Counted from the whole stretch's first letter, positions 9,811 to 60,948 are shown. The stretch: DNA of 63,637 nt, filler included, from an uncultured Methanosarcinales archaeon (GCA_964434475.1; 4 parts of 4 records of this genome joined end to end with filler, not necessarily neighbours in it), one strand, 5' to 3'. The notes: a model not told the origin generated them from the sequence alone. Numbers and translations are program-made.

Positions 9811-10932
9811 CTATTTGAACTTAGTAATCAATCCTGGTAAGCCAGTACCTATTGGAACAGGCTGATTAAGCATCACATTCTCAACAACAGAATCAAGCTT
9901 ATCTATCTCCCCTATAAGAGCCGCATTGATAAGATGTTTTATAGGGGTCTCAAAGCTTGCCCTTGCTAATACTGACGCCTTTTCACTGACAACACCATAC
10001 CTAGTAATACCTTTTACTTTTCCGTTGACACACATGGTATCAGCAACAAGCATGATATGTCTTATGTCTACATTCAAACCCTGACTCTCTATTACCTTAA
10101 ATACTTCGTTGATTACAGCCTGTCTTGCTGCTTCAATACCAAGCACCTTATGTATCTCATGTATATCATTACTTATTGTCCTTGTCTCATCAACAAAATC
10201 CATATCATATATCTGTTTAAGGTTTGAACCTGCTGTAACTATAATATATTCCTCGTCTCGTTTAACAGGCAATACCTGCGTTACTCCTTTGATTCCACCT
10301 ACATATACTTCCTTAAGCATTTCTTTCATCTTATAAATCTCATTAAGATGCTCCTGCTTACTTTTAGGCTTTATTATCAATAATCCGTTCTTAAGCTTTA
10401 CATTGAAACTTTTCAAGGATTTTGAAGCATTTGACAACAGCTTTGACTCTTTTACGCCGATAAGCTTCAAAGCTTCTTCATCTATCTTGACTTCTATAGA
10501 GGAGTTTGCAACATTTATAGAAAATTCCTTAGCAATCTCTTTAAGCCTAGTTTCTTTTATAGAATAAGCCAGCTTCTTGATATTCTCACCTTTGTTATAA
10601 GGTTTTTTCAGATAAATCTCCATCATAGGAGTCTTAATCTTTTTTCTGCCATCCAGTATCTCTATAATCCTCGGAAGACCCATCGTAACGTTCATCTCTG
10701 CAACACCTGCAAAATGAAATGTGTTAAGGGTCATCTGTGTTCCTGGCTCACCTATACTTTCAGCGCCTACCAATCCCACACATTCTCCTGGTTCAGCCAA
10801 TGCGTTCTCATACTCTTCATTAGCCAAAGCCAAAACTTTCTTAAGTTTGCTTTTTGGAGATTTTTCCTTAATCTCTTCAAGTATGTTATTTGGTAATTTT
10901 CCTTTATATTGTTTGATAAGGTCTTCAGCCAT
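9811..10932 (-). CDS. rpoA2: RNA polymerase subunit A''
   Basis: [18 protein letters not shown] and LARASFET. Confidence 0.98.
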
Positions 10933-10942
10933 TTAATATCAC

Positions 10943-28300: not shown

Positions 28301-30938
28301 AATTTACTATGCCATCAAATTCAACAGACAAAGGAGCTAAGCCAGATGTTGTATTAGGAGATATAATAGGAGCAGGAACAAGATCTGCATCTACAGTTAT
28401 GGAAACAGATGAATAGCTTGTGTCTCCGTTTGCATCTGTTACTGTGAAATTTGCAACATAATTGCCGGCAGAATAACAATATTCTGAATCTTCAGTAGTT
28501 GAATCTGTTGAGCCGTCGTTAGTATAATCCCAGGAATATGTTAAAGGCAGATTGCCGCTTGTCGCTGTTCCGTTAAGATATACGCATAATGGCTCGATGC
28601 CTGAAGTTACATTTGCTGATGCGCTTGAGCCAGGCATAAGGTCTGCTTCAACATTTATTGTTGTTGTATTATGACACATATCACCATCGTTATCTTCAAC
28701 AGTCAAGTTTACGATGTAAACACCTGATGAATAGATATTATTGGTGTTGTTAAGATAGGAATCTATTGTTCCATCATTAGTATAATCCCAAGAAATGTTG
28801 TAAGGAGCATTGCCTCCTGCAACGCTTGAATTAAGATAAACATTCAATGGCTCTATGCCTGATGTTGGCGAGGAAACTATTGTACATATAGGGACAGTAT
28901 CAGCTATTGCAGTTATTTCAACAGAAGCATAGCTTTTGTCTCCATCTGCATCAGTTACAGTAAGATTTACTGTGTAAAAACCAGGTGCTGCAAAAGTATA
29001 GCTAGTGTTTTGAGTCATATTATCTGCTACACCATTATTGTCAAAATCCCATGAATAATTTAATGGGAGATTGCCGCTTATCGCTGTTGCGTTAAAATAT
29101 ACTGTTAAAGGAGCTAAGCCAGATGTTTCTGAGGATGTTATTGAAGCTGTTGGAGTTAAGTCAGGATCAACAGCAAAAAAATGTATCTCTGAATTACTGT
29201 TTATGTTTCCATCACTATCATTACATACATAGTATAATACATAGGATGAACCGCTTGTCAATCCGTTTAGTATGAAAGAATGTTTTTTTGTTCCTGTTAT
29301 ATTGAAATCAGTTCCTTCTGAAAAATCAAAATCCTTATCCGTCAAATTATATCTACAGACTGCACTTTCGTCAGTTGTTATATTTATGCTTGTTGATATT
29401 AAAGTGTATGAAATATTTGAGCTGTTTGCAGGGTTATTTATTGTAATTACAGGAGCTGTTGTATCAGGCAATAAACTGAATTCAACATAATTATTTGAAT
29501 CGTTTAGTTCTTCAATCTCATCATCTATATCTATTAACAGTTTTATCAAATCTGTATTGGTTATATTTACCCTATGGACAAGAATATTTTCTGTTGTTTG
29601 GTTTTCTACCTTTTCTAATGTGGTTTCCCCTATACGTTCTGATCTATTATTATATAACCTTATATTTGCGCTAAATGCTGAAGCAGTTCCTAAATTCTGA
29701 AGAGTAAAGTTTACAGTAGTGTAATTTACAGATGTATCTAGATATATATCTTCTGAATCAACATAAAGCTCTGGCAAAGGCGGCTTTGTAAAATCATCGT
29801 AAGTGTATTCTTTGGTGAAATATGGTTTTTCAGAATAATCCAATAATGAACCATCTCTTAATTTCATATATCCTATATAATAAGGTCCGTTTTTCTTTGA
29901 CAAGTACATATCTGTTGAGTTCATAATTATCAATATGTTATCTTGACCTTGAGTTAAAGAGATATTCTTTTTTATTTCCAATATGAAATTATCATATGTA
30001 TCATGTATAGCTGCTTCAAAGGAATATGTTTTTGATTCATTGACATCAACACTTACGTTTATTATCAATTGATCAATCTTTGTAGAAGATATGTTATATT
30101 CTCTGAATGAATTTGAAAAAACTGTTTTTTTAGGGTCAAAATCAATATAATTGTATTGGCTCAAGGTTTGGTTTATGTTGTAGTTATAATAGGTTTCTGA
30201 TGTTTTAATTATTACTTTTTTTAGATATAATGTGCTGTTCAGCATCTTTTCTCTTATATCTTTTGAATCAAAGTTTAAAGAAACTGTTTGTGTTCCTGAA
30301 CCTATTATTTCTGGTTGTTTTATGTTTACAAAATTGCTTTCGTTGTCATATAAATAAGCATATATGTTAACAGTTTCTGCAATTGAAGAATTTAATGTTA
30401 AATTAATCATTAACAGATCATACCTTACATCTCCTTGGTTGTCTATTGCAGTATCAGCAGTATAACTAAGATTCATCTCTTTGTTCTCATACAATTCTCT
30501 ATTGATGTTTAAGGAATAGTTTTTGTGTTTTCTTAGTATAAGTCCTGACTCATTATATATCTTTACAGAAAAATTATAGTTTTCATATTCCAATGATTTT
30601 GCTGAAAAATTAAATTTAGCTTTGTTTAATCCTGCGCCGTATGTTTTTTGGAATTCTTTGGATTGTACTATATTATGGTCATTATATAATTCTCCTATCA
30701 GCTTATAATCGTCTGCTTGTGTGTCCATAGATACGTTTACTACAAGATAATCATACTTCGCACTTCCGCCTACATCTAAGCCGGAGTGATCAATACTTGT
30801 AATCGAGACATATTGCGCATCATAATCCATATTATAGCTTGACAGGAGTTGGTCTAATGATATTGCGTTGACTAAACCTAAGCAAAGCAAGACTAAAGCA
30901 ATCGCATACACTATCCGTATTGTTTTGTTCTTATTCAT
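25395..30938 (-). CDS. Giant surface protein (1847 aa) with CARDB and about 13 PKD domains
   Basis: Signal peptide; repeated GxEPLxVxF...YSWDFxNDG...GxYxVNLTVTDxDG units; CARDB motif IEELNDSNN. Confidence 0.92.
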   Translation of the reverse strand: MNKNKTIRIVYAIALVLLCLGLVNAISLDQLLSSYNMDYDAQYVSITSIDHSGLDVGGSAKYDYLVVNVSMDTQADDYKLIGELYNDHNIVQSKEFQKTYGAGLNKAKFNFSAKSLEYENYNFSVKIYNESGLILRKHKNYSLNINRELYENKEMNLSYTADTAIDNQGDVRYDLLMINLTLNSSIAETVNIYAYLYDNESNFVNIKQPEIIGSGTQTVSLNFDSKDIREKMLNSTLYLKKVIIKTSETYYNYNINQTLSQYNYIDFDPKKTVFSNSFREYNISSTKIDQLIINVSVDVNESKTYSFEAAIHDTYDNFILEIKKNISLTQGQDNILIIMNSTDMYLSKKNGPYYIGYMKLRDGSLLDYSEKPYFTKEYTYDDFTKPPLPELYVDSEDIYLDTSVNYTTVNFTLQNLGTASAFSANIRLYNNRSERIGETTLEKVENQTTENILVHRVNITNTDLIKLLIDIDDEIEELNDSNNYVEFSLLPDTTAPVITINNPANSSNISYTLISTSINITTDESAVCRYNLTDKDFDFSEGTDFNITGTKKHSFILNGLTSGSSYVLYYVCNDSDGNINSNSEIHFFAVDPDLTPTASITSSETSGLAPLTVYFNATAISGNLPLNYSWDFDNNGVADNMTQNTSYTFAAPGFYTVNLTVTDADGDKSYASVEITAIADTVPICTIVSSPTSGIEPLNVYLNSSVAGGNAPYNISWDYTNDGTIDSYLNNTNNIYSSGVYIVNLTVEDNDGDMCHNTTTINVEADLMPGSSASANVTSGIEPLCVYLNGTATSGNLPLTYSWDYTNDGSTDSTTEDSEYCYSAGNYVANFTVTDANGDTSYSSVSITVDADLVPAPIISPNTTSGLAPLSVEFDGIVNSGNLPLIYSWDFTNNGITDNTSQNTSYVFAAPGFYDVNFSVSDANNDVNSTILQISVISDTVPICSIVSSSTNGVELLDVYLNSSVAGGNAPYTIGWDYTNDGTIDSTQNNTGHIYSSGSYVVNLTVEDNDGDMCYDSVAVNVEADLMPSSSASANITSGIEPLCVYLNGTATSGNLPLTYSWDYTNDGSTDSTNEDSEYCYSAGNYVANFTVTDANGDKSYSSVSITVDADTVPILSIFAAPTSGIEPLTVELNASVTNGNLPLTYSWDFTNDRISDNNSQKTSYTFNSPGAYLVNLTVVDFDGDTVHSLQSITVDADTIPDCNIIVNPNTGIEPLNVLFNSTITNGNLPYTYAWDYTNDGTVDSTQESTSNVFNSGSYVVNFTVTDVNGDKCYASADVNVDANLMPSASLSTNTTSGLENLCISFNATGTGGNLPLTYSWDFDNNGVVDSTTENIVYCYPAGNYIANLTITDANGDKSYDSVAITSIADTQPSASITANSTSGLEPLSVNFDVTVNNGNAPYTYLWDFGDGSSSTTKVSDHTFSSEGVYNVQVTVTDADGDIDTDNIQIEVQSDPIVDALADTISGIEPLTVNFDADITNKLPIMNYAWDIDNDGVVDYTTKSPQHTYSETGLYVAEVTVCNINRCITDNITINVGDNNLVLFDIDSDVTSGLEPLSVSFTSNIIAADLPVTYNWDFDGDGNIDSIQENPSYTYNDCGTYIARLTVEDVDGDTNSSIITIDVLEDLIPDPTINADTTTGVMPLTVNFGASVDSGNLPLTHSWDFNNNGTIESTEQQASYTYDVPGLYYVNLTVTDNDGDKVSVIKEIAVTPTETETFLLKAAAFDFDDSSKILNPSVVVINDEHKFALPVAYFNVTGDDIILVTNAAVGYQDDSDTYYFDSGIKYCSGVTCNMQSTSQGETFTTTCTYSQQYEDWECIVTNDGVSIAYFYKPLDNRLTIANYLQKE
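27600..29130 (-). repeat. 777-bp intragenic tandem duplication (three PKD domains)
   Basis: Matching anchors 777 bp apart (27606/28383 and 28331/29108). Confidence 0.8.
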
Positions 30939-31272
30939 TTTTATCTTTCTTTATCAAATATATCTTGTATATGATTAGTCCAAGGATGAAGCCGATGATG
31001 AAGTAGAAGAGAATAGCAAAAAAAGTAATAAAAAAAATATTCATTTCATCTATTGAAATTGAAAAAATACTTGATATTAATGAAGCAGGTAATAAAGGAA
31101 TAAAAACAAAAACAATACATACTAGAGAATTGCAATTAAAAATTACAAAAAGATAGGATATTAATAGTAACAAAACGAGCAATATTCCTCCAATAATACC
31201 TGAGAGCACCCATTTTTGTTTTTCACTTAAATTTTTTATTTTATCTACCATCTTTTTTACCATGTGCACCAC
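30931..31272 (-). CDS. Small multi-TM membrane protein
   Basis: Highly hydrophobic 113-aa ORF overlapping both neighbours. Confidence 0.7.
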   Translation of the reverse strand: MVHMVKKMVDKIKNLSEKQKWVLSGIIGGILLVLLLLISYLFVIFNCNSLVCIVFVFIPLLPASLISSIFSISIDEMNIFFITFFAILFYFIIGFILGLIIYKIYLIKKDKNE

Positions 31273-34190
31273 CAGGGTTTATCTTCTGGGTCGATTAAGT
31301 TATAACACCTTTGATGCGCATTATACTCATCCCCGTTTAATTTTCTCATAATAATATCTCGTGTTTCTTCTTTTTGAGCAAAGCTACTGAACCCCATATC
31401 AGAATGTGGTCCAAATACCTTGAAATAAGTTTTATTTGTTGAGTTAACATTAGAATAAATATTATCCACATCATCTTTAGTAACAACCCAATCACTTCCA
31501 TAATTGTCGTCAGTTACCCACCCCCTTATCGCAGCAAACTTGTTTAATGTTAAATTTACCGCAGGTTGATTATCATCCGAATATTTTGAAAAGTTATAAT
31601 ATTGTTTGAATAGATTTAAAGAAATCATTGCATCATTACTAAAATAATTATGACCATAACCCATTTTTAATAAGTCCTCAAATAAAATATGCATAACTCC
31701 TTTACTCTCTGAATTACTTATAACGCGTCCACCAACCAAATTCAACGCACTCTTCGCCGGACTCCCTCCCTCGAACGCGCCAGGAGCGCCTACCGCAACC
31801 AATGTCTCAATAGGATTCGCAGTCATTGAAGTATTCAACCAGTGTGTTCCGTTCCAGTACATGCTTATGTTTGCTATTCCAACATCATTCCACTTATCTA
31901 AAGAGCTTAAAGCAGTTCTAGCGCCGTTGCTAAAGCCAACATATTGTATCTTATCCTCGCCAGTATAAGCTTGAACACCAGCAATCAAAGCTGGCCAATA
32001 ATTATCTGTAAGATCATCAAAAGTATAATCATAACACTCGTCACATTCTATATCTGGCCCTCCAGTTATCTCTATCAACCAAACATCTCTTCCAGAAGCC
32101 GCCAATTCTCCGCCTAAATCCTCCCAATAACTTAGGTTGTTCCATAATCCTCCCGACATAACAACTGGAGTTTTAGTAAAATTAAAGTCAACTTTTCCGT
32201 CATAAAGAACATCAAGATATTCGTTGAAAGTCAATGTATGTTTTGGCGCGATATGCTTTAATCTTAATGTAACTAAATCATGAGTCTTAACAAATTCCTC
32301 TTCAAAATCATATCCTCCCATTAATCCTAAGCGAACAATGTCCCTGAAAGTTTCATTGTTTACCATATAGTATGGCTTATTTACTGGAGACTGAAAATAA
32401 TCAAAAATTGATAAAGCATCCATATTAGTTCGAGAAATAAACACATCCTTGTTCTTCTCAAGAACATCGTAATCAAACTTCCTTAGAGCAGCAACAATTC
32501 CCTCTATATCATTGCCTAAGACAAAAACATTAAGTTTTGAATCTTCAAAATTATTTATCAAAGCATTGTAAGGCATAGAATCCTTATTATCATATAATTT
32601 TACTGATCCGTCTTCAATACCCCAATCTAAATCATTCAGAGTATAATTATTATAAGCATTATAGCCTGCATGTATAACATAGTCTGCAAAAGAAATATCT
32701 TCTACTATATTATAATGTGTTAATTTATCAGACACGTAATCATAAAACAGTTCATTAAGTATTTCGGGTGATACGTTGATATCCAGATAAACATTAGCGG
32801 AATAATACTTATCTTGTATCATATTATTTCCTTCTTCAGATTCAGGAATAAGGTATAAAGGATCGACATAAACAAAAACCTCACTTTCTTTCTGCAAAGG
32901 CATCAAAGTTGATAATGTAACATTATCCAACCCTGTCAAACTATCATTATACAAAATTATCTTTTCATCAATTATCTCATTATCTTTAACTTCATAAAAA
33001 CTTATCTTAAAATTTCTTGCGCTTGTATTTCCAAGATTAAAAATATCAAAACTTATATTCACATTGCTTTCTTGTTTCTTGAAAATCAAATTTTTAGGAG
33101 TTAAATCAGGTAATATCCTATTAGTAACATTACCCCACATTATAGTAAAGATTATCTCTTTTTCATCACCTGGCTGTAATGTACCTATGTTATGTTGATA
33201 GCCTATCGCAGGATCCTCTTGTTTACCCAAAGGATCTACTATATTATATTCATTAAGATTATTTAGTTCATAATCTAAAAAATCTTCTGAAATCTCCCAA
33301 GTAGAGTTGCCTAAACCATGTCTTGATGACTGTACATTAGGATATATCAATATCTTAAATTGCGGAACATAAGTAGGGTTGGCATATATAAAGCTGTCTT
33401 CAGCAGGATTATAATATGCATACTCATTTTCAGGAAAACCATTGTCCATATCTAGCATATTAAATAATTTAACATTATACAGAGCCGAGCCGCCTATGTT
33501 TTTCACGATATAACCCATGTGGAAAAAGCTTCCATTCCTAGGAGTATCAAAATATCTTTTAACCTGCACGGATTCATTTTCAACCACAGAATAAACATAA
33601 TCGTCAACTATATTTCCTGAGACGCTTGTTGCAGCAGTTGTAGAAACAGTAATTGGCAATTCAGTATAGTCTCCTCCATTATCTACATAAGATCTCATCA
33701 AACCATAATTATCAGAATATACTGCATAAACATCGCCCCCTAAAGCACTGACTAATGCTTCACCGACATAGAAATTCCAACCTGAGTTTGAATAATGTTC
33801 GCATACGTTCAAATAAAACCTATCACCTAAAATATCTGCACATGCAATATTCTGTATTTTTGTGCCTCCTTTTTTTGTTTTCTTTAGAACAGGCTCGTCA
33901 TAAAAATCATCATTCTTATCTCTTTTTACTTTATTTGGTTTTTTGCTTCTAGAATAATATTCATCAATGCAAGGTTTGATTTGAGATTTTCTATCAAACT
34001 TATCTATATTATTAAAAACACTCCCTTTTTCTAAAACATAAGATTTGTAAAAAACAGGAGGAGAATCTTCCTTTACAACCAATATATCATCATTCTCAGG
34101 AAGATAATACATAGATAAAGGATGAGAATAAACCATAGGCATGCATAGAACAAATATACTTAATACCAAAACTAACATATCTAACTTCAT
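31257..34190 (-). CDS. Secreted CARDB-domain protein with C-terminal alpha/beta hydrolase (lipase/esterase-like)
   Basis: Signal peptide; CARDB (PDLT...IPESEEGNN); YTFDDL...TGEDKIQYVGFSNG nucleophile elbow; candidate Asp (SDWVV) and His (GPHS). Confidence 0.8.
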   Translation of the reverse strand: MKLDMLVLVLSIFVLCMPMVYSHPLSMYYLPENDDILVVKEDSPPVFYKSYVLEKGSVFNNIDKFDRKSQIKPCIDEYYSRSKKPNKVKRDKNDDFYDEPVLKKTKKGGTKIQNIACADILGDRFYLNVCEHYSNSGWNFYVGEALVSALGGDVYAVYSDNYGLMRSYVDNGGDYTELPITVSTTAATSVSGNIVDDYVYSVVENESVQVKRYFDTPRNGSFFHMGYIVKNIGGSALYNVKLFNMLDMDNGFPENEYAYYNPAEDSFIYANPTYVPQFKILIYPNVQSSRHGLGNSTWEISEDFLDYELNNLNEYNIVDPLGKQEDPAIGYQHNIGTLQPGDEKEIIFTIMWGNVTNRILPDLTPKNLIFKKQESNVNISFDIFNLGNTSARNFKISFYEVKDNEIIDEKIILYNDSLTGLDNVTLSTLMPLQKESEVFVYVDPLYLIPESEEGNNMIQDKYYSANVYLDINVSPEILNELFYDYVSDKLTHYNIVEDISFADYVIHAGYNAYNNYTLNDLDWGIEDGSVKLYDNKDSMPYNALINNFEDSKLNVFVLGNDIEGIVAALRKFDYDVLEKNKDVFISRTNMDALSIFDYFQSPVNKPYYMVNNETFRDIVRLGLMGGYDFEEEFVKTHDLVTLRLKHIAPKHTLTFNEYLDVLYDGKVDFNFTKTPVVMSGGLWNNLSYWEDLGGELAASGRDVWLIEITGGPDIECDECYDYTFDDLTDNYWPALIAGVQAYTGEDKIQYVGFSNGARTALSSLDKWNDVGIANISMYWNGTHWLNTSMTANPIETLVAVGAPGAFEGGSPAKSALNLVGGRVISNSESKGVMHILFEDLLKMGYGHNYFSNDAMISLNLFKQYYNFSKYSDDNQPAVNLTLNKFAAIRGWVTDDNYGSDWVVTKDDVDNIYSNVNSTNKTYFKVFGPHSDMGFSSFAQKEETRDIIMRKLNGDEYNAHQRCYNLIDPEDKPWWCTW

Positions 34191-34929: not shown

Positions 34930-35082
34930 ATGGACAAATCAACATTACATGAACACGAACATGTAAAAAAAGAACTTGAAAAAGAAGGTAAAAAAGAAAC
35001 TGGTGAAGAAGAGGAGCATCACGAACAGCATAAAGAACTTCCTAAATCAGAAGAAGAGAAGGAATACAAAGAACAGCATTAA
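34930..35082 (+). CDS. Small His/Glu-rich protein (50 aa; not in ORF track)
   Basis: MDKSTLHEHEHVKKELEKEGKKETGEEEEHHEQHKELPKSEEEKEYKEQH; TTTAAATA about 25 nt upstream. Confidence 0.5.
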   Translation: MDKSTLHEHEHVKKELEKEGKKETGEEEEHHEQHKELPKSEEEKEYKEQH

Positions 35083-35897
35083 GCATACTTCTGTACGTTC
35101 TTGAAATGCAGCTTCACATATTTTTTTAGATGTTTTTTATTTTGTTTAAGAGTTTGCAACGCTTCTTTTACATGAGTGCTTCCTTTAGGTACAGGCATCT
35201 TCAATTCCTTAGACAATTTCTTCAGCTGCTTAAGAGCTTCGCTTCTGGCTAAAATGCTCGCTGCAGCCACTTCAACATATTTGCTTTCTGCTTTTATCAG
35301 CATCTTTGCTTTCACCTTACATCCAGGATATTTGTCAACAACAGCCAAATCATGAAAATCCAGTTCATCAATACACCTTTGATGCATCCTATTGAGCAAA
35401 TTTGTAACATTACCTAATTCCTCTACAATAAGATTATATTGATTTGGCGAAAGGTTAACTATATGATAAGGAACAATTTTCTTTATTTTTTGTGCAATAA
35501 CATGTATCTCAAAATCTTTCAGTTTTTTGCTATCTTCTACTCCAACCAACTTCAATCTTTCCCTCATATCCTCATCAGCTTTCACTCCTGCAACCACGAT
35601 GCCGCCAAAAGTATCGCCCTTCAAAGCTTCATCTGTTCCGATAACAATGCCTTTTTCATTTACAAAGTTAATAGGATGCACATATTTGCCTATGTGATTC
35701 TTACGTAAATATTCTACTAAATCATTAACAACCTTTTCCTTACCTTGTATAAGAAGCTTATTTGAATTGAACAAAACAAGAACACAAGACCCCTTCATCC
35801 TTGCGATTTCATATTCAGACTTAACCGGCTCAAAATAGAATCCAAAATTCTGAAGTACTGTCAAATCATCCTTATGTATATTTGTAAAGGTTGGCAT
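35079..35897 (-). CDS. rnhC: Ribonuclease HIII
   Basis: N-terminal TBP-like segment (LVLFNSNKLLIQGK), then GTDEALKGDTFG, DSKKL, VAAASILAR and KLHFKN. Confidence 0.85.
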   Translation of the reverse strand: MPTFTNIHKDDLTVLQNFGFYFEPVKSEYEIARMKGSCVLVLFNSNKLLIQGKEKVVNDLVEYLRKNHIGKYVHPINFVNEKGIVIGTDEALKGDTFGGIVVAGVKADEDMRERLKLVGVEDSKKLKDFEIHVIAQKIKKIVPYHIVNLSPNQYNLIVEELGNVTNLLNRMHQRCIDELDFHDLAVVDKYPGCKVKAKMLIKAESKYVEVAAASILARSEALKQLKKLSKELKMPVPKGSTHVKEALQTLKQNKKHLKKYVKLHFKNVQKYA

Positions 35898-37228: not shown

Positions 37229-37876
37229 TTAGAAATCAAACAATTTTCTTTGTTTTTTGTTGTCAACAACATCCTTATATGTCTGCCACTCCTTCCTGAA
37301 TATAGAATATTTGTCATGGTTCTTTTTGATAAAATCCTGGGTTTTCCCATCTGAAGTATAACCAGAACCAAAATCTATGCCAATCTCATGTTTCAATTTT
37401 TCTATCTCCCTATCGCGTGTAACTTTTGCTATGATTGAAGCAGCTCCGCATATAGCATAATTATCATCAGCTTTATGTTCTGCAATCAGTTCTATTTTGA
37501 GATCTTTAAGGTTTTTGCGTATCTCTTTTTTATATAACTCTCCGTCTTTAGTTGGTAGATCAAGAATTACTTTTTTAGCGTTCAAGATGTTGATAAGCTT
37601 GGAAGTGGTCAATGCCTCAAGCTTATTCAGGTTCATATTCGGATCATTTAACGCAGAATCAATCACTTCAGGAGATAAGATTGCTAATTCATATTTAACT
37701 AATGCGAGTATCTTCGGAAACAGTTCTTCCCTTTTCTTGGGAGTCAACTTCTTTGAATCCGCAACTCCCAGTTTATTCAAAAGATGCTCGTCTTCTTCCT
37801 TGATAGCACAGATTGCCATAACCATCGGCCCGATAACAGGACCGCGTCCTGCTTCATCTACTCCAGCAATAATCAT
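37229..37876 (-). CDS. rnhB: Ribonuclease HII
   Basis: GVDEAGRGPVIGPM, DSKKL, AASIIAKVTRD and DFGSGY. Confidence 0.97.
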   Translation of the reverse strand: MIIAGVDEAGRGPVIGPMVMAICAIKEEDEHLLNKLGVADSKKLTPKKREELFPKILALVKYELAILSPEVIDSALNDPNMNLNKLEALTTSKLINILNAKKVILDLPTKDGELYKKEIRKNLKDLKIELIAEHKADDNYAICGAASIIAKVTRDREIEKLKHEIGIDFGSGYTSDGKTQDFIKKNHDKYSIFRKEWQTYKDVVDNKKQRKLFDF

Positions 37877-37961
37877 AAAATTAAAAAATAAGCAATGATA
37901 TATAATTATTACCAAAAAATATAAATAAGCTAAAATAAAAATCTCATAAAAGGTGATTTTC

Positions 37962-38270
37962 ATGGAAAAAATACAATATTCAGGATTAGATCAAGTCGAC
38001 AAAAAAGAACGTATGCTGTTAGACAAACTTTCTGCAGAATACTATCCTAAGATACAAAGGATGCTGCACAATGAACTTAATCTGCACATAAATATAAAAA
38101 GATACAATAAGGAAGGTACACGCGAGAAATGGAGCATACATGTGCAGGCGAATGCACCGACAATAAAATTCACAAGCGACAAAGCATCTGATTGGGATTT
38201 TGCAAGAACATTGCATAAAGCGTTCAAGGATCTAGAAAATCAAATTAAAAAAAAGATGAAAATAGATTAG
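37962..38270 (+). CDS. Putative HPF/RaiA-like ribosome hibernation factor
   Basis: About 100 aa with an HPF-like beta-alpha-beta3-alpha pattern ending ASDWDFARTLHKAFKDLENQI. Confidence 0.55.
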   Translation: MEKIQYSGLDQVDKKERMLLDKLSAEYYPKIQRMLHNELNLHINIKRYNKEGTREKWSIHVQANAPTIKFTSDKASDWDFARTLHKAFKDLENQIKKKMKID

Positions 38271-51902: not shown

Positions 51903-52100
51903 AAATAATAATAAACCCTATTTTCTATATTTAGATATTTCTTTACTTCTTTAAATCATTGTATTACAATCTATATTATTTAAAATCAACAAGTATATAA
52001 AGAGAAAAAGTAACCAAAATAAATTGTGTATCGGATGGAAAATAAACCCAATATGTTGTGTTTTCATTCAGAAAAAGTAAAAAACAGAGGGAAAATCAAA

Positions 52101-54818
52101 ATGGAAAATGAGGAAGTGTATAAACAAAAAATAAATTCTATGTTTCAATTCAACAGCAAGATATACAAAAAGGTTCCTAATGAACTTATAAATAATTACA
52201 AAGAACTTCTTCTTATGCTGATAAACATGCAGAAAAATAAAGAATTAGAAGTACATCCTCAAAACCAATACCTGGGCGGAAATGATCTCGCAACAAATAT
52301 ATACAAAAAAAAATATTTTCTGAAAGATATAGATGCCGAACTTATAGAAACAAGACCTGAACAGAGTTTCGCAAGAATTGCAGCTTTTGTAGCTGCTGTA
52401 GAACCTGATAAACAAAAACAGAAGCAATATGCAATAAGATTCTATAATGCATTATATAAAGGCCATTTTATACCTGGAGGAAGAGTAATTGCAGGAGCAG
52501 GCGATCTGTTCAGAGTAAAGACTTTATCCAATTGTTTTGTTACTCTAATAGGAAATGACAGCATAGAAGGAATATTTGATGCTGCTAAAGAATGCGCAAG
52601 GACATATTCCTACGGAGGAGGTATAGGAGTAGATATCTCTAACTTAAGACCAAGGGACAGCATAGTACACAATGCAGCAGACAGATCAACAGGAGCTGTT
52701 AGTTTTATGCAGCTTTATTCAATGACAACAGGGTTGATAGGGCAAAGCGGAAGAAGAGGAGCGTTAATGATAACATTGGATGTAAAACATCCCGATGTAT
52801 ATCATTTCATGGATGTAAAAAAAGAGGATGACTGGGTTACAAAACATATTGCAGACCAATGCGAATGGAGCGGAGCTTTTGATAAAAGTCAAATAGATCT
52901 AATCAGGCAAAAAGTAAGGGAAAATACCCAAGTGAGATTTGCAAACATCTCATTAAAAGTTACTGACGAATTTATGAAGGCTGTTGAAGAACAAAAAGAA
53001 TACAACAATAAGATCTTGATATATGATAAAAAAGCAAATACAGAAGAAAAGATAGAATATGGACATTATTCTTATGAAATACCTAACAAAAACATAGAAG
53101 ATTATGAACTGTTGCAAACTTTTGATAACATAGAACAACTTAATCAATATCTGGCCAGCAACAATGTGCAGGCAATATCAAAACAAGAGCTTGATTCTGA
53201 GGAAAAAAGGGATAAATACGGAGATTATATTGTAAATGCAAGAGACAAAACATTAGCGATTAAATACAGCGGAGATTATATGCTTTATTTTAAATCTGAA
53301 CAAACAGGAGAGATTAAAAATTTAGTTAAAGCAAAAAGTATTTGGGATAAGTTTGTCGCCGGTAATTACAAGACAGCGGAACCAGGTTTGATATTTTGGA
53401 GCACCATGACAAAATACAGCCCTTCTAATTATATAGGCAAGCCTATAGCCAGTACAAATCCTTGTGGCGAAGTTCCATTAGAAGATGGAGGAGCCTGCAA
53501 TTTAACATCTTTAAACCTCTCAAGGGTTGTCAAGAACAGTTTTGATGAAAATTCAGAGGTAGACTGGAATCTTGTAAAAGATACGATAAGGCTAATTGTC
53601 AGATTCCTTGATAATGTAATAAGCTGGAACGAATACCTCAACCCTTTAGAAAAACAAAAACAAGCTGCAAAAAATACAAGAAGGATAGGGTTAGGATATA
53701 TGGGTATTGCAGATATGCTCAACCAACTAGGAATAGGATACGACAGCGATCAAGGAATCAAGACTATGGATATATTAGCAAAAACAATATCAAACACAGC
53801 TTATGATGAAAGTGCTAATCTGGCAACAGAAAAAGGCAAAAGTCCAGTATGGGATTATGATCAGTACAAAAAAGGAGCATATTTTAAAGAAAGATTAAGT
53901 GAAGAAACAAAACAAAAAATCGCAGATAAAGGCTTAAGAAATATTGCGATACTTTCAATAGCTCCGACTGGAACAATCTCAAATATAGTTTTAAGCTATA
54001 AGAATACAGATAAAAACTATATTGGCGTAAGTTCAGGCATTGAACCTATATTCGGATTGTTCTACACAAGAAGAACAGAAACAGTAGGTCAAAGCTTCTA
54101 TAAAGTATTCCATAGCACAGTGCAAGCATATATAGACCAAAAAGGATTGAATGAACAATGCCAGGAAGCTGAAAAAGAAGAAGAGCTAAAAGGCATCTTG
54201 CCAGAACATTTTTTCAGGACTGCACACCATATATCTCCTGAAAAAAGAGTTACAGTACAAGGAACATGCCAAAAATATATAGATCACTCAATATCAAGCA
54301 CATGCAACCTACCAGAAGATGTTGAACCAGAAGTAATATCTGATGTATATCTCAAAGCATGGAAAGCAGGATTAAAAGGTGTGACAATATACAGGGATGG
54401 TTCAAGATTTGCTATACTCACTGTTAAAAGCAAAGAAAATGAATTTCAAAAGCATAAAAATAGCATAGTTAATGTGTGCTTAGAAGGAGGAGAAAGTGCA
54501 GAACTTAGAGGATCAAGCCTGATACATGATAATCAAGGAAGACTGACTACAGTATATCATGCGACTAAAAACAATATACCTATAACATCATGCAGATTAG
54601 ACGGAACAAGCATATTAAAAATATCGGAAGGGGCATTAGAACTCAAAAAAGATAAAGAAGAGATTGAACAACAAAATAAAATTACAGAAAACACTGAAGA
54701 AATATTTGACTCTAATCTTAAAAAATGTCCTGTGTGCGAGAAGGTTACATTAAAAGTAGAAAGCGGATGTTCCTCATGCATAAATCCTGAATGCGGATTC
54801 AGCAAGTGCGATCATTAA
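52101..54818 (+). CDS. nrdJ: Class II (adenosylcobalamin-dependent) ribonucleotide reductase
   Basis: TLSNCFV, GGGIG, STNPCGEVPL, SIAPTGTIS, GLKGVTIYRDGSR and C-terminal Zn ribbon. Start set at ATG 52101 after GAGGG. Confidence 0.95.
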   Translation: MENEEVYKQKINSMFQFNSKIYKKVPNELINNYKELLLMLINMQKNKELEVHPQNQYLGGNDLATNIYKKKYFLKDIDAELIETRPEQSFARIAAFVAAVEPDKQKQKQYAIRFYNALYKGHFIPGGRVIAGAGDLFRVKTLSNCFVTLIGNDSIEGIFDAAKECARTYSYGGGIGVDISNLRPRDSIVHNAADRSTGAVSFMQLYSMTTGLIGQSGRRGALMITLDVKHPDVYHFMDVKKEDDWVTKHIADQCEWSGAFDKSQIDLIRQKVRENTQVRFANISLKVTDEFMKAVEEQKEYNNKILIYDKKANTEEKIEYGHYSYEIPNKNIEDYELLQTFDNIEQLNQYLASNNVQAISKQELDSEEKRDKYGDYIVNARDKTLAIKYSGDYMLYFKSEQTGEIKNLVKAKSIWDKFVAGNYKTAEPGLIFWSTMTKYSPSNYIGKPIASTNPCGEVPLEDGGACNLTSLNLSRVVKNSFDENSEVDWNLVKDTIRLIVRFLDNVISWNEYLNPLEKQKQAAKNTRRIGLGYMGIADMLNQLGIGYDSDQGIKTMDILAKTISNTAYDESANLATEKGKSPVWDYDQYKKGAYFKERLSEETKQKIADKGLRNIAILSIAPTGTISNIVLSYKNTDKNYIGVSSGIEPIFGLFYTRRTETVGQSFYKVFHSTVQAYIDQKGLNEQCQEAEKEEELKGILPEHFFRTAHHISPEKRVTVQGTCQKYIDHSISSTCNLPEDVEPEVISDVYLKAWKAGLKGVTIYRDGSRFAILTVKSKENEFQKHKNSIVNVCLEGGESAELRGSSLIHDNQGRLTTVYHATKNNIPITSCRLDGTSILKISEGALELKKDKEEIEQQNKITENTEEIFDSNLKKCPVCEKVTLKVESGCSSCINPECGFSKCDH

Positions 54819-54836
54819 GATATTATTAAAAATAAA

Positions 54837-55463
54837 ATGGGAAAAAATGAACTTGGCCTTGTGCATGTATATACTGGCAATGGAAAAGGAAAAACAACAA
54901 CAGCCATAGGATTAGCTTTAAGAGCTATTGGCCAGGGCTTTAGGGCTTATGTTATACAGTTTCTGAAAGGAGGGCAGTATACAGGCGAATATGTAGCATT
55001 GAAACAATTCCTGCCTAATGCTGAGATAGTGCAATACGGCAAAGGTTGCATAAAAGAAAGCAAACAGTTAAAGATAGATAATTTTGGGGAAGTTAAATGC
55101 TGGAAAGGAGACTGGAAAAAGGACGAGATTAGCTGCGGAGACTGCAGATACTGTTTTGTAAATGATAATGAACAAGAACAATTCACAAAAGATGCTTTTG
55201 CTCATGCAAAAAGAATACTCACTAACAATGATTTTGACATTGTTATTCTAGATGAACTCAATTGCGCTATCCATTCCGGCATGATCGAATTAGATAAAGC
55301 ATTGGAGCTGATAAAAAACAAAAATTCAAAAACAGAACTTATAATCACAGGAAGAGATGCACATCCTAAGATAATTGAAGCAGCGGATCTTGTTAGTGAA
55401 ATAAATGAAGTAAAACATTATTATAAAAAAGGCATTCTCGCAAGAAGAGGAATTGAGTATTGA
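54837..55463 (+). CDS. cobO: Cob(I)alamin adenosyltransferase (CobO/BtuR)
   Basis: VYTGNGKGKTT, IQFLKG, ILDEL, ELIITGR and RRGIEY. Confidence 0.95.
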   Translation: MGKNELGLVHVYTGNGKGKTTTAIGLALRAIGQGFRAYVIQFLKGGQYTGEYVALKQFLPNAEIVQYGKGCIKESKQLKIDNFGEVKCWKGDWKKDEISCGDCRYCFVNDNEQEQFTKDAFAHAKRILTNNDFDIVILDELNCAIHSGMIELDKALELIKNKNSKTELIITGRDAHPKIIEAADLVSEINEVKHYYKKGILARRGIEY

Positions 55464-55525: not shown

Positions 55526-56008
55526 ATGAAAAAAGCGTTTATAAGTTTCGGTTCTAATAAAGGAGACAGAAGCAAGAATGTAGCTAAAGCTCTCGATATA
55601 TTAAGAAAACATTTTCTTATTGCAGATGTCAGCTCATTCTATAATTCAGAACCGGTTTATACAAATCAAACAAGAAATTTCTTAACAGGAGTTATAAAAA
55701 TAGCGACAAAACTGGAACCTAAGCAATTGCACGAACAACTTCAGATGATCGAAAGACAACTAGGCAGGATCAATATTGCAAGAGATGAAGATAAAATAAT
55801 AGATCTTGATCTTATATATTATGAAAAAAAAGCAATAGAGCAGCCTCCCATAGTTATTCCACACCATAAAGCACACAAAAGAAGATATGTTCTGCAGGCG
55901 ATGAACGATATTGACCCTGAATATTTACACCCTAAATTAAAGAAAACGCAAAAACAACTGCTTGATGAACTAGGATGCGATAAAAAAGTAGAAAATATTT
56001 CTGATTAA
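55526..56008 (+). CDS. folK: Hydroxymethyldihydropterin pyrophosphokinase
   Basis: [20 protein letters not shown] and IPH. Confidence 0.88.
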
Positions 56009-57294
56009 TATTCTAGATCAGGATATAAAGGAAACTTCTCGCAAAGCTCAAGTATTCTCTGTTTTGTTTTTTGTATCATTTCTTCATTCTTGTAATCTTT
56101 AAGCAGATTAGACATCAAAATTCCGATTTGCTTCATCTCCTTATCCTTCATGCCCCTTGTTGTCAATGCAGGTGTGCCAATCCTTATCCCGCTCGGATTA
56201 AAAGGAGTTCTAGGATCAAAAGGAATCATATTTTTATTGGTATAGATTCCTGCTTCATCCAATACTTGCTCTGCTTCTTTGCCAGTGCATTCTAAGTTTG
56301 TTAGATCTATCAAAATTAAATGGTTATCTGTGCCATTGCTTACTAACTTTATACCATTTTCCATCAATGTTTCTGCTAATACCTTTGCATTTGCAATCGC
56401 TTGTTTTTGGTATTCTTTGAAATCAGGCTGCAATGCTTCATTGAATGCAACAGCTTTTGCTGCAATTATATGATCCAATGGTCCGCCTTGCATACCTGGA
56501 AAAACAGAAAAATCTATTTTTTGTGCCAAGTTTTTTTTACCTTCTGGATCTAATCTATCTTCTTTCTTGGATAATATGATCGCGCCTCTTGGTCCGCGCA
56601 ATGTTTTGTGGGTAGTGGTTGTGACAATATCGCAATAAGGTATAGGATCAGGATAAAGTTTTGCTGCAACCAATCCTGCAACATGAGCAATGTCTGCCAT
56701 TAAATAAGCATTGACTTTATCAGCTATCTCTCTAAAACGTTTGAAATCTAATTTTCCAGGATATGCTGAGAATCCTGCAAGTATCAACTTAGGCTTATGC
56801 TCTAAAGCAAGCTTTTCAACTTCATCCATGTCAATCATTCCTGTTTCTTTGTTAACTCCGTAAGGAATTATATTATATAGCTTGCCTGAAAAATTTACAG
56901 GTGAACCATGAGTTAAATGACCTCCATGTGCAAGATTCATGCCTAAAATAGTATCTCCGGTTTTAAGCACTGCAAAATATGCTGCCATGTTTGCACTGCT
57001 TCCAGAATGCGATTGTACATTAACATGTTCTGCGCCAAACAATTTTTTTGCCCTTTCAATTGCCAATTTTTCTGTTATGTCTATAAACTCATTACCACTG
57101 TAGTAACGCTTACCAGGATATCCTTCACTGTACTTGTTTGTTAATATAGTACCAGCTGCTTCCAATACTGCTCTGCTCACGAAGTTTTCACTTGCTATCA
57201 TCTCTACCCCATTCCTAGCTCTTTCAAGTTCTTTTTTAATCGCTTCGTAAACTTCAAAATCCTGTTGTTTTATTGATTCTAAAATTTTAATCAC
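56005..57294 (-). CDS. glyA: Serine hydroxymethyltransferase (bacterial type)
   Basis: [23 protein letters not shown] and [13 protein letters not shown]. Confidence 0.98.
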
Positions 57295-57757
57295 CTTTTT
57301 TCCTTTTGTAAATTATGAATTCAAAGTCATCAAAATCTTCCTTATGCTCTGGCTCCCATTCATCAAGGTTAAATTCAGGGAAATATGTATCACCTTCATA
57401 ATCCTCTTTTATCCATGACATATAGAGTTTGTCAACAACAGGCAGGAATTGTTTGTATATTGTTGAGCCACCTATTACAAATGTATCTTTTCCGTATTCT
57501 TTTGCTTTTTCTATTGCTTCTTCAACACTTGAACAAACATCTATGCCCTCTGTTTCCAGCATTGATCTGCTTATCACTATATTGTTTCTGTTAGGCAATG
57601 GTCTACCTATTGATTCATATGTTTTTCTACCCATTATTACAGTGCAATCATTCGTGTGTTTTTTGAAATTTTTTAGGTCTTCAGAAATACGCCAAGGCAA
57701 ATCATTGTTTTTTCCTATTACCTTTTGTTTTGTCAATCCAACTATAATTGCTATCAT
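57287..57757 (-). CDS. folA: Dihydrofolate reductase
   Basis: [31 protein letters not shown] and GDTYFP. Confidence 0.97.
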
Positions 57758-57768
57758 TTTTATTTTAC

Positions 57769-58635
57769 CTAAACTGCAATGTCAAACTTTATCCTTGGAT
57801 GAGGGTCATATCCTTCTATCTCTGTGTCTTCGTGTTTCCAATCAAATATTGAAGTGAAATTGTTTGTCTTTATCTTAGGCAATTTCTTTGGTTCTCTAGA
57901 CAATTGCTCTTTTAGTCCTTCAACATGATTTTTGTAAATGTGTGTGTCAGCTAAGAATCCAACTAACTTGCCTTCTTCATATCCTGTTTCTTTTGCCAAT
58001 AGATGAAGTAATAAAGCATAGCTTGCAATATTAAAGGGCAACCCAAGTGCAGTATCTACACTTCTTTGGTTCCAAAGCAAATTTAGTTTGTTGTTTATCA
58101 CAGTAACCTGAAAACCATAATGACAAGGCGGCAGAGCCATCCTGTGTAAATCTTTAGGATTCCATGCCATAACTATCATCCTTCTGTCATGGGGTTTTTC
58201 CTTCAATGTCTTGATTATATTTTTTAGCTGATCTATGCCTTCTGTCTCAGTAGGTTGATCATAAGCAACATATTTTGCTCCAAATTTTCGCCATTGATAA
58301 CCATAAATTGGCCCTAGCTCTCTTTCCTCTTCCATCTTTTTCTTAGTCTCTTCCTCATGTCCATAAGCAACCTTATCAGGAGAACACCATTCATTCCATA
58401 TAAAATTTCTTCTGTCTCTTAGCCAATTTTTATCAGTAATACCTTTGATAAAGAATTCCAATTCTGAAGCTACAAGCCTCATAGGAACCTTTTTAGTAGT
58501 AAGCAAAGGAAAACCATCCTTCATATCATGCTCAAACATCGCACCAGCGATTGCAATAGTTCCAGTTCCTGTTCTGTCGTCTTTATATTCTCCTTTTTCC
58601 AGAATATGTCTTATAATATCAAGATAAGCTTGCAA
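57769..58635 (-). CDS. thyA: Thymidylate synthase (ThyA)
   Basis: DRTGTGT, FPLLTTKK, MALPPCH and QRSVD..LGLPFNIASY; TTG start after GGGGTG. Confidence 0.97.
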   Translation of the reverse strand: MQAYLDIIRHILEKGEYKDDRTGTGTIAIAGAMFEHDMKDGFPLLTTKKVPMRLVASELEFFIKGITDKNWLRDRRNFIWNEWCSPDKVAYGHEEETKKKMEEERELGPIYGYQWRKFGAKYVAYDQPTETEGIDQLKNIIKTLKEKPHDRRMIVMAWNPKDLHRMALPPCHYGFQVTVINNKLNLLWNQRSVDTALGLPFNIASYALLLHLLAKETGYEEGKLVGFLADTHIYKNHVEGLKEQLSREPKKLPKIKTNNFTSIFDWKHEDTEIEGYDPHPRIKFDIAV

Positions 58636-58736
58636 TCTAAACACCCCCAGATGAAAGAAGAACAAACTCATTTAAATAGTTTTATATTATAAAATAACAA
58701 CAAATTTAAATCATATAAAATAATACAATCTTCAGT

Positions 58737-59305: not shown

Positions 59306-59572
59306 TCAATCAACAATCCTTATCAACTTCTGCTTACTAGTAAATCCGTTTAATATCTTGACTTCTTTCTTCAATCTTTTTTTTAGAAATCTTATCAGTT
59401 CTATGTTAGCTTTGCCCTGCTCGGGCTTAGCATGTAATGCTATCCGCAGAGCTTTTTTGTTTTTATCATAACCAATAACCTCTGTTTTAGGTGAATTGGG
59501 TTTAACGATCACTAAGAGTTTAAAGTTTTCTGGGTTGATATATTCATTTATATCCGTATCAATTTTTGACAT
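59306..59572 (-). CDS. UPF0235/YggU (DUF167) protein
   Basis: VKPNS...AKPEQGKANIELI..L...GFTSKQK. Confidence 0.85.
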   Translation of the reverse strand: MSKIDTDINEYINPENFKLLVIVKPNSPKTEVIGYDKNKKALRIALHAKPEQGKANIELIRFLKKRLKKEVKILNGFTSKQKLIRIVD

Positions 59573-59628
59573 AATGAAAAAAAATTTAATTAAAAATATA
59601 TAATGCTTGCGGTCAATTTGCAATTATA

Positions 59629-60843
59629 TTATGTCGCATAATTATTGAAATAATTCTGCACAACAACTATAGGTGTTCCTTGATCTCCGCTTCCGCTTGT
59701 TAAGTCGAACAAACTGCCCAACAAGTCTGTCAACTGCCTAGGTGTTGTTCCCTGCGATGCCATTTTTCCAACCAGGTTATTATCTTTTTTGCGAATATGT
59801 TCTTTCATAGCTTCTTCTGCTTCTTCTCGAGTCAATCCTTTCAACTGGTTGTCTGCAAAATATTTCATCTTTATCTCGTTAGGTGTGCCTTTCAATCCAT
59901 CGGTGTATCCAGGTGAAACAACTGGATCTGCAAGCTCCCAGATCTTTCCTACAGGATCCTTGAAAGCACCATCTCCATACACCATAACTTCAATATTCTT
60001 GCCTGTAAGTTCCTTCATCCTCTTTTGTATTTCGCGAACATATTTATCGCAATCTCTAGGAAATAATTTTAATCTCTCATCTGTAGCCATATTAGAGCCA
60101 AGCAGACCATATTCCTCATTATAACCTCTTCCTTCAACAGGAGTTGAGCAGATATCATCAAGACCGTATACATTGAGATGAGATCCAAATTTTCTTAAAA
60201 TATGTTTAGTTCTTTTTCGGGTATGGATGTCTGCTGTAAGTATATTAGATGTAAGAGAAAGTAAAGAATTCATCTGATTTGATAAAAATATATTGGGCAC
60301 TGCATCTTGTGAAGCAATTATTTCATTATAAAAAGCCACATAATCCACGCCAGTGAAAGGATGTTTGGCAGCTTCACCGAAAATTTCCCTATACTTTATT
60401 TCATATAAAATATCCTTATTAGGATTTATATCATTTTGATCCATCATATCAACATCCATCAAAGGATTGCCAACTTCATCGCCAGGGTAACTCAATTGCA
60501 AAAACACTACATCAGAAGCTCTCGCTATTCCTTTTAGTATCAACGAAAAGCGATTTCTGCTAAGTATAGGAAACATTACACCTACATGTCCTCCACATGC
60601 TCCTCCTGAATACTTTTCCCTTATCTCGTTTGCAATATCATCTATAGTAACATAATTTCCTTGAGAACGCGCAACTGTTGACTCGGTTATTCCTATAACA
60701 TCCCTTTCTTTTGGCTTGTATTCACCAGCATCAATCGAATTTTTCAAAGAACCAACAACAATATCAACAATATCATCTCCTTCCTGAACAATAGGAGCTT
60801 TAACACCCATAACAATTCTTCCTAAAGTTGAACCATTTGACAT
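59629..60843 (-). CDS. CofE/F420-0:gamma-glutamyl ligase family protein
   Basis: APIVQEGDDI, VIGITESTVARSQG, YGDGAFKDP and DLTSGSGDQGTPIVVV. Confidence 0.8.
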   Translation of the reverse strand: MSNGSTLGRIVMGVKAPIVQEGDDIVDIVVGSLKNSIDAGEYKPKERDVIGITESTVARSQGNYVTIDDIANEIREKYSGGACGGHVGVMFPILSRNRFSLILKGIARASDVVFLQLSYPGDEVGNPLMDVDMMDQNDINPNKDILYEIKYREIFGEAAKHPFTGVDYVAFYNEIIASQDAVPNIFLSNQMNSLLSLTSNILTADIHTRKRTKHILRKFGSHLNVYGLDDICSTPVEGRGYNEEYGLLGSNMATDERLKLFPRDCDKYVREIQKRMKELTGKNIEVMVYGDGAFKDPVGKIWELADPVVSPGYTDGLKGTPNEIKMKYFADNQLKGLTREEAEEAMKEHIRKKDNNLVGKMASQGTTPRQLTDLLGSLFDLTSGSGDQGTPIVVVQNYFNNYAT

Positions 60844-60948
60844 AAATATCACCCGGGAAAAAACACCCCATATTACCTTTATAATGATTGTTGTAATAGA
60901 AATGATGTTATAGAAAATAAATGATAAAAATATATTAAAAATAATAAA

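Follow-up and report, generated by a model that had tools for sequence, protein, structure and literature searches.

FolC2 of Chlamydia trachomatis (CT611, COG1478) is a member of the CofE superfamily with the function of FolC (PMC1971073, PMC4161248), in a host that is without F420. CofE itself is represented by AF2256 of Archaeoglobus fulgidus (PDB 2PHN, 2G9I and 7ULD), a protein of about 250 residues that uses GTP, and a CofE-type domain also forms the N-terminal part of FbiB in Mycobacterium. Here we describe a further gene of this superfamily, in a 63.6-kb stretch of DNA from an uncultured Methanosarcinales archaeon (GCA_964434475.1), the whole of which we refer to as the window. The encoded protein, which we call the long form, represents a large uncharacterised branch of the CofE (PF01996) superfamily that has the CofE fold with an insert and a different substrate site. 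A sequence-only reading of the same DNA had proposed that it is an alternative folylpolyglutamate synthase of the FolC2 kind. With somewhat more belief than doubt, we favour a different function, that of a CofE-fold amide ligase dependent on nucleoside triphosphate (NTP), acting on a substrate other than F420 in nucleotide or one-carbon metabolism.

The open reading frame (ORF) extends over 59629-60852 on the minus strand, with its stop codon at 59629-59631, and encodes 407 residues from a GTG start at 60852 or 404 residues from an ATG start at 60843; the protein is 100% identical to a public protein of 404 residues (P0001). Its sole Pfam match is to PF01996 (F420_ligase; expectation value (E) 3.1e-54), with residues 16-400 covering all 218 profile positions, and the same scan found no Mur_ligase_M or Mur_ligase_C domain in it. 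Modelled with AlphaFold2 from 67 homologues, the whole protein has a mean predicted local distance difference test score (pLDDT) of 94.4, and in searches with Foldseek and VIA-align its only clear structural relative is CofE (Foldseek E 6e-8). Alignment with A. fulgidus CofE (2phn_A) gave a Z score of 16.0 and a root-mean-square deviation (rmsd) of 4.5 over 194 of 248 residues, at 20% identity. The Pfam family and the core fold are thus common to CofE and the long form, but the differences are considerable: the long form has 404 residues with an inserted domain, it is only 10-20% identical to CofE in structural alignments, and its scores fall well short of the CofE equivalog cut-offs, with 44.8 bits against a cut-off of 274 for NF009809 and 37.3 bits against 180.65 for TIGR01916, in both cases from short pieces only. 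In the N-terminal part of the core, NF009809 positions 5-58 align to residues 11-72 of the 404-residue form (14-75 of the 407-residue form). The resemblance to FbiB is likewise confined to the CofE-type domain, since NF009810 reaches 15.8 bits against a cut-off of 304 and the long form has no nitroreductase-like C-terminal domain.

Homologues of the long form are publicly labelled 'coenzyme F420-0:L-glutamate ligase', and if these names were right the archaeal protein would be a genuine F420-0:gamma-glutamyl ligase. The name of the Pfam family and the CofE fold agree with the labels, and the equivalog scores just given do not. In the alignment with 2phn_A, residues 8-399 of the model pair with chain residues 2-222 of 248, and the protein terminates 5 residues past the equivalent of CofE residue 222, so that roughly the final 25 residues of CofE, R234 among them, have no counterpart in the long form. 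An excerpt of PMC10861534 describes R234 of A. fulgidus CofE as stacking on the F420 ring. Nor were genes for F420 synthesis found with the long form where they were looked for: none of the F420-pathway families was found among 56 ORFs scanned with Pfam in the 63.6 kb of the window (13 at E<=0.01 and 43 of at least 90 residues at E<=1e-5), and cofD (TIGR01819) was above cut-off in 0 of 54 distinct bacterial genomes that carry the long form. A CofE function is close to refuted by these results, and we give it almost no credence.

The additional length of the long form lies in the middle of the protein. Residues 76-251 match only about 51 residues of CofE, indicating an insert of about 125 residues, and when folded alone this stretch was predicted as a confident alpha/beta domain (pLDDT 88.7). 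Its best structural matches are all HUP-class nucleotide-binding folds, comprising the universal stress protein (USP) structures 1jmv (VIA Z 7.8, rmsd 3.8, 120 residues aligned) and 3qtb (Z 7.6), the N-domain of argininosuccinate synthetase (1j1z, Z 7.2) and, with Foldseek, phosphopantetheine adenylyltransferase (PPAT; E 2.5e-3). The model thus suggests a Rossmann-like, HUP/USP-like alpha/beta domain, an assignment that we keep at the level of the fold because no match reaches Z>=8. Across 67 long forms there are 28 invariant columns, all of which are present in the archaeal protein. Those in the insert include the motifs P-I-x-S-R-N-R-F, in a loop that comes after the first strand of the inserted domain, and D-E-x-G-N, while the C-terminal part of the core has K-L-x-P, G-D-G, E-L-A-D-P, G-T-T-P-R and S-G-S-G-D-x-G-T-P. 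These motifs are very well kept and are unlike those of CofE and FolC2. The position and make-up of the S-R-N-R loop suggest an anion or phosphate site.

By analogy with CofE, in which NTP-dependent activation of a carboxylate is followed by amide formation, the long form would most likely phosphorylate a carboxylate of its substrate at the expense of a nucleoside triphosphate, which in CofE is GTP, and would then join an amine, probably L-glutamate, to the activated carboxylate. The substrate would be neither F420 nor demonstrably folate, and it may carry phosphate, which we propose because of where the invariant S-R-N-R loop stands, just after the insert's first strand. A role in nucleotide or one-carbon metabolism is suggested because a limited set of genes recurs beside the long form: GMP synthase, an IMPDH/GMP-reductase-like gene, serine hydroxymethyltransferase (SHMT), ThyX, thyA-folA-glyA and ribonucleotide reductase (RNR). 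Catalytic and metal-binding residues of CofE are not mappable residue by residue onto the long form because the sequence match is so weak: a profile of the long form searched against PDB sequences matches CofE at E 0.08 only.

The neighbourhood of the gene was compared in 75 bacterial loci with a called long-form copy. A Pfam scan of the immediately adjacent genes (140 of 141 scanned, one being left out for its size) showed that the commonest neighbour is a gene with the C-terminal domain of GMP synthase (GMP_synt_C), in 11 of the 75 loci; by their titles, nine of these 11 loci come from Acutalibacteraceae, Oscillospiraceae or unclassified Clostridia, and one from Erysipelotrichales. Genes for an HPRT-like protein, PurA, a nucleoside hydrolase, Maf, carbamoyl-phosphate synthase and SHMT are each adjacent in a single locus. 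A viral collection contained a further 24 long-form loci, many on contigs of 117-380 kb, and 22 distinct loci were scanned after two near-duplicates were left out (118 of 119 listed neighbours covered). Within three genes of the long form, an IMPDH/GMP-reductase-like gene occurs in four of these 22 (L089, L092, L095 and L101), SHMT in two (L093/L094 and L104, in each case two genes downstream) and ThyX in one (L090). In L103, a viral contig of 9 kb, the second gene upstream of the long form encodes a T4-type portal protein. Because metabolic genes cluster in large phages, the neighbours on viral contigs are suggestive rather than decisive; the long form may be a phage auxiliary gene of nucleotide metabolism. 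The gene is found beside nucleotide-synthesis genes in three independent settings, namely Clostridia and their relatives, phage-like contigs and the archaeal window, with the guanine branch represented in some cases and the thymidylate and one-carbon branch in others.

Several features of the sampled loci are of interest in their own right. In five of the 75 bacterial loci (L004, L018, L029, L049 from C. difficile, and L069) a divergent gene for a LysR-family regulator lies directly upstream of the long-form gene; this may be a dedicated regulator, the ligand of which could hint at the pathway. On a metagenomic contig (L082), an HD-domain phosphohydrolase gene at 11152-11790 overlaps the long-form stop codon by 4 nt, and the two genes possibly form an operon. 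Two near-identical viral contigs, L087 and L097, both have the CofE-like gene at 10487-11176 in the form of two ORFs, 10487-10855 and 10886-11176, a split that may be due to a frameshift, a stop codon or an assembly error. A second PF01996 copy in a Sporanaerobacter-type genome (G003:C1:369744-370873) is also split, into frames of 353 and 56 residues.

Folate is the alternative substrate that has to be weighed most carefully. According to the sequence-only reading, the subfamily of about 400 residues glutamylates pteroate or folate in this archaeon; the long form would then be an alternative dihydrofolate/folylpolyglutamate synthase, functionally like FolC2, that provides ThyA, DHFR and SHMT of the archaeon with glutamylated folate and serves as an auxiliary enzyme in phages. 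Much of what was adduced for this proposal is borne out. Pfam and NCBIfam assignments confirm a CofE-family gene near folK, glyA, folA and thyA, with thyA about 1 kb away and the others within about 5 kb; the scan of the 56 window ORFs found no Mur-ligase or FolC domain as well as no F420 genes, in agreement with the absence of folC and F420 genes from the window that had been reported; and the literature on CT611 does provide a precedent for a CofE-family protein with FolC function (PMC1971073). The SHMT and ThyX genes on viral contigs, the single bacterial locus (L031) with glyA immediately adjacent to the long-form gene, and carriers that lack cofD are also what such a function would lead one to expect. 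The long form thus resembles FolC2 in being a CofE-superfamily protein encoded near folate genes, and were it to act on folate, its reaction would be analogous to that of FolC/FPGS, which differ from it in having an unrelated fold and family (Mur-ligase, TIGR01499).

The inference drawn from these observations, however, finds no support in comparisons with FolC2 itself. The FolC2 model TIGR04132 ('intra_fol_E_lig', 241 positions, cut-off 350 bits) had no match at E<=10 in any of five long forms (the window protein, two archaeal proteins, one from C. difficile and one viral), in a search in which the HMMER filters discard very weak matches, and it found nothing in five of five bacterial genomes that carry a long form. 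In three F420-making control archaea the same model gave cross-matches below its cut-off. Because there is no TIGR04132 match, we conclude from profile comparison that the long form does not belong to the FolC2 family, and by this measure it appears further from FolC2 than true CofE is. Its long architecture is unlike CofE and unlike the 241-position FolC2 model, a comparison that was made by profile and not with the CT611 sequence. The archaeal gene also differs from FolC2 in not being inside a folB-folKP-folA operon; it appears instead to form a transcription unit apart from the folate genes, with an opposite-strand gene between it and thyA-folA-glyA and a TATA-like element of its own.

The distribution of canonical folC argues in the same direction. 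Unlike FolC2, the bacterial relatives of the long form coexist with canonical FolC: TIGR01499 was above cut-off in 48 of the 54 bacterial carriers (5 of 5 and 44 of 50 genomes in two sets with one genome in common), and the six carriers without folC are metagenome-assembled genomes (MAGs) of 1.3-1.9 Mb with completeness unknown. Coexistence would be compatible with a second enzyme for the folate tail. The archaeal protein is 62-65% identical to Clostridial proteins, so that its function is likely to be as in the folC-bearing bacteria. Linkage to folate genes is rare among these relatives. Searched with phmmer using ThyA, FolA, GlyA and FolK of the window as queries, a scoring limited to these four genes and leaving folC, folP, folB, folE and folD aside, the fetched flanks contained one or more of them in only two of the 75 bacterial loci: L004, with thyA and folA about 9 kb from the long-form gene, and L031. 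The remaining 73 had none, and guanine-nucleotide genes, with GMP synthase at 11 loci, are commoner as neighbours, which largely removes the linkage on which a folate role was to rest. The gene family, the genomic context and the precedent put forward by the sequence-only reading have therefore stood up, whereas a FolC2-type function for the long form has not; we regard that function as unlikely, though far from negligible.

A position beside folate and thymidylate genes could also be due to chance, with the long form acting in an unrelated pathway, for example in tailoring another cofactor or a peptide-like metabolite. There is only a single archaeal context, and for a genome of roughly 1 Mb the odds of a gene lying within 5 kb of a given cluster are about 1%, a figure to be read with the fact that many windows were scanned. 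At most of the 75 bacterial loci, moreover, the neighbours are unrelated and differ from one locus to another, LysR regulators, transporters and tRNA synthetases being examples. The recurrence of nucleotide and one-carbon genes beside the long form in two bacterial classes, on phage-like contigs and in the archaeon argues against coincidence, which we think improbable.

The reading of the long form as an amide ligase of nucleotide or one-carbon metabolism faces difficulties of its own. The neighbourhood counts, including the 11 GMP-synthase loci, are phylogenetically non-independent, and most of the 75 loci are without an informative neighbour; these loci are also drawn from the best-scoring 80 of at least 600, and hence lean towards Clostridia, and the window is the only archaeal neighbourhood in the sample. 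In the window the nearest metabolic genes are those of folate and thymidylate metabolism, which would also fit a FolC2-like enzyme. The HUP-like assignment of the insert relies on Z scores below 8, values that are common among unrelated folds, and the E value of 0.08 against CofE counts on the same side, as does the failure of our tree (see below), which is quick and midpoint-rooted, to resolve the direction of transfer. A bolder reading would see in the long form a missing nucleotide or one-carbon enzyme common to giant phages, to ultra-small archaea and bacteria and to Clostridia, C. difficile among them, which we put forward tentatively as a possibility that deserves attention rather than assent. 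Such an enzyme might be a structurally new second folate or pterin glutamylase working alongside FolC, or it might use an NTP to amidate or glutamylate a phosphorylated substrate of the nucleotide type, with the HUP-like insert as the binding domain.

The long form is typically about 395-405 residues in length and belongs to a large family. Protein searches returned at least 8000 candidates at E<=1e-3, the best 120 of which, aside from the window's own protein, are 56-65% identical and come mostly from Clostridia, including C. difficile; among cluster representatives at 50% identity there were 1298 at E<=1e-3 and 240 at E<=1e-30. Genome contigs yielded at least 600 long-form loci, of which the best 80 are all titled bacterial and include Clostridioides difficile, Sphaerochaetaceae and Bacteroidales. 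A metagenome scan with the protein alone found two loci at 49-50% identity: L082, on a 59-kb contig with bacterial-type genes (FloA, DsbD and the type II secretion system), and L081, a 3-kb fragment. Among 11 representatives that are longer or of odd length, no informative fusion partner was found. Four of these (P0238, P0258, P0213 and P0177) are complete long forms that have a longer span or carry an extension but lack any further domain, and the other seven have a partial ligase domain with an unrelated or unannotated N-terminal part, such as a reverse transcriptase, a transporter, an AlaRS fragment, an Ig-like domain or HATPase_c. A literature search judged by title found no publication on the long Clostridial or archaeal form.

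In a quick maximum-likelihood tree, rooted at the midpoint and with support from the Shimodaira-Hasegawa-like approximate likelihood-ratio test (SH-aLRT) only, the window protein falls in a clade of 24 rows, mainly Clostridia (SH-aLRT 99), where its sister is a protein from a MAG labelled 'archaeon'. A cluster labelled Nanoarchaeota is placed separately inside the same clade, and a protein labelled Woesearchaeota, 39% identical, is far off in the tree. The placement fits an exchange of the gene between DPANN archaea and bacteria akin to Clostridia, and horizontal transfer is probably the reason why the archaeon and such bacteria have the gene in common.

Split Rpb1 and Rpb2 subunits, Rpb5, TFS and NMD3 mark the window as archaeal DNA, and several of its ORFs are without any Pfam match. 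The features around the long-form gene are collected in Table 1.

Table 1. The long-form gene, its parts and the surrounding genes, in coordinates of the window.
Feature	Coordinates	Strand	Basis
Long-form CofE-like (PF01996) gene	59629..60843	-	ORF, Pfam, identical public protein, AlphaFold2 model, 2phn_A match
N-terminal part of CofE-type core, residues 1-75	60619..60843	-	NF009809 alignment
Insert-bearing stretch, residues 76-251 (176 residues)	60091..60618	-	Fold prediction, structure search, invariant columns
C-terminal part of CofE-type core, residues 252-404	59632..60090	-	phmmer segments to CofE chains, invariant columns, VIA range
TATA-like TTATAAA, possible own archaeal promoter	60878..60884	-	Sequence reading, inference
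DUF167/YggU-family gene	59306..59623	-	PF02594 E 6e-17; TIGR00251 59.3 bits vs cut-off 35
P-loop nucleotide-kinase-like gene, 188 residues	58737..59303	+	AAA_18 E 3.8e-9; PRK08356 54.1 bits, below cut-off
thyA	57769-58671	-	Pfam/NCBIfam, E 1e-100
folA	57287-57757	-	Pfam/NCBIfam, E 9e-53
glyA	56005-57294	-	Pfam/NCBIfam, E 6e-174
folK, bacterial-type HPPK	55526-56008	+	E 2e-30; TIGR01498 97.7 bits vs cut-off 54.1
cobA, corrinoid adenosyltransferase	54837-55463	+	Pfam/NCBIfam
Class II-like ribonucleotide reductase	52026-54818	+	Pfam/NCBIfam

Upstream of the long-form gene lies the gene for TFS, and the TTATAAA element 35-41 nt upstream of the ATG at 60843 possibly drives the long-form gene as an archaeal promoter of its own. 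A scan for bacterial promoters and terminators gave results near chance level, with models that are not applicable to an archaeal host. The DUF167 gene follows directly downstream on the same strand; its start is likely the ATG at 59572, giving an AT-rich spacer of 56 nt, where a TTG at 59623 would give 5 nt. It was not found beside the homologues in the 75 bacterial loci. Next comes the P-loop kinase-like gene, on the opposite strand between the long-form gene and thyA, which is probably a (d)NMP kinase of a deoxynucleotide cluster. Its product resembles archaeal PRK08356 proteins, and it also matches positions 101-207 of 437 of NF041025 ('anti-phage dCTP deaminase') at E 5.4e-11.

Beyond it, thyA, folA and glyA (56005..58671, minus strand) form a thymidylate-cycle operon, with an overlap of 8 nt between folA and glyA. 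The long-form gene is 1-5 kb from these three and from folK. The presence of a bacterial-type HPPK (FolK) in an archaeal window is an observation in itself; for this step, an excerpt of PMC12506659 has most Archaea using the unrelated MptE. Neither folP nor folB was found in the 63.6 kb. The ribonucleotide reductase is a protein of 930 residues with a Cys-rich, zinc-ribbon-like C-terminus, and because cobA directly follows its gene, the pair suggests a B12-dependent class II enzyme with its cofactor-activating enzyme. Taken as a whole, the cluster of RNR, cobA, folK, glyA, folA, thyA and the kinase-like gene looks more like a deoxynucleotide module than like an operon for folate synthesis. Elsewhere in the window, two very large surface-type proteins are encoded at 25395-34190 on the minus strand, one of 1847 residues with at least eight PKD domains and CARDB and one of 977 residues with CARDB, separated by an ORF of 113 residues. 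The window also encodes two paralogues of RNase HII less than 3 kb apart, at 35079-35897 and 37229-37963 (minus strand), the former being the weaker match (E 3e-25) and having an N-terminal extension of 85 residues.

The label 'coenzyme F420-0:L-glutamate ligase' on thousands of database proteins is almost certainly wrong for this branch of the superfamily, the hosts of which make no F420. The value of the present analysis is mainly corrective in a second respect also, in that present evidence does not bear out the analogy with FolC2 for the long form, to which, tempting as it is, it should not be extended before an assay. What the window adds is an archaeal member of the family in a thymidylate cluster, together with the failed FolC2 test, the counts of co-occurrence with folC and the phage contexts. 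Conservation in the family is high, the archaeal and Clostridial proteins being 55-65% identical, and the long form is present in a major gut pathogen, in symbionts with minimal genomes and on jumbo-phage-like contigs. Establishing its biochemical function would fill a gap in core metabolism.

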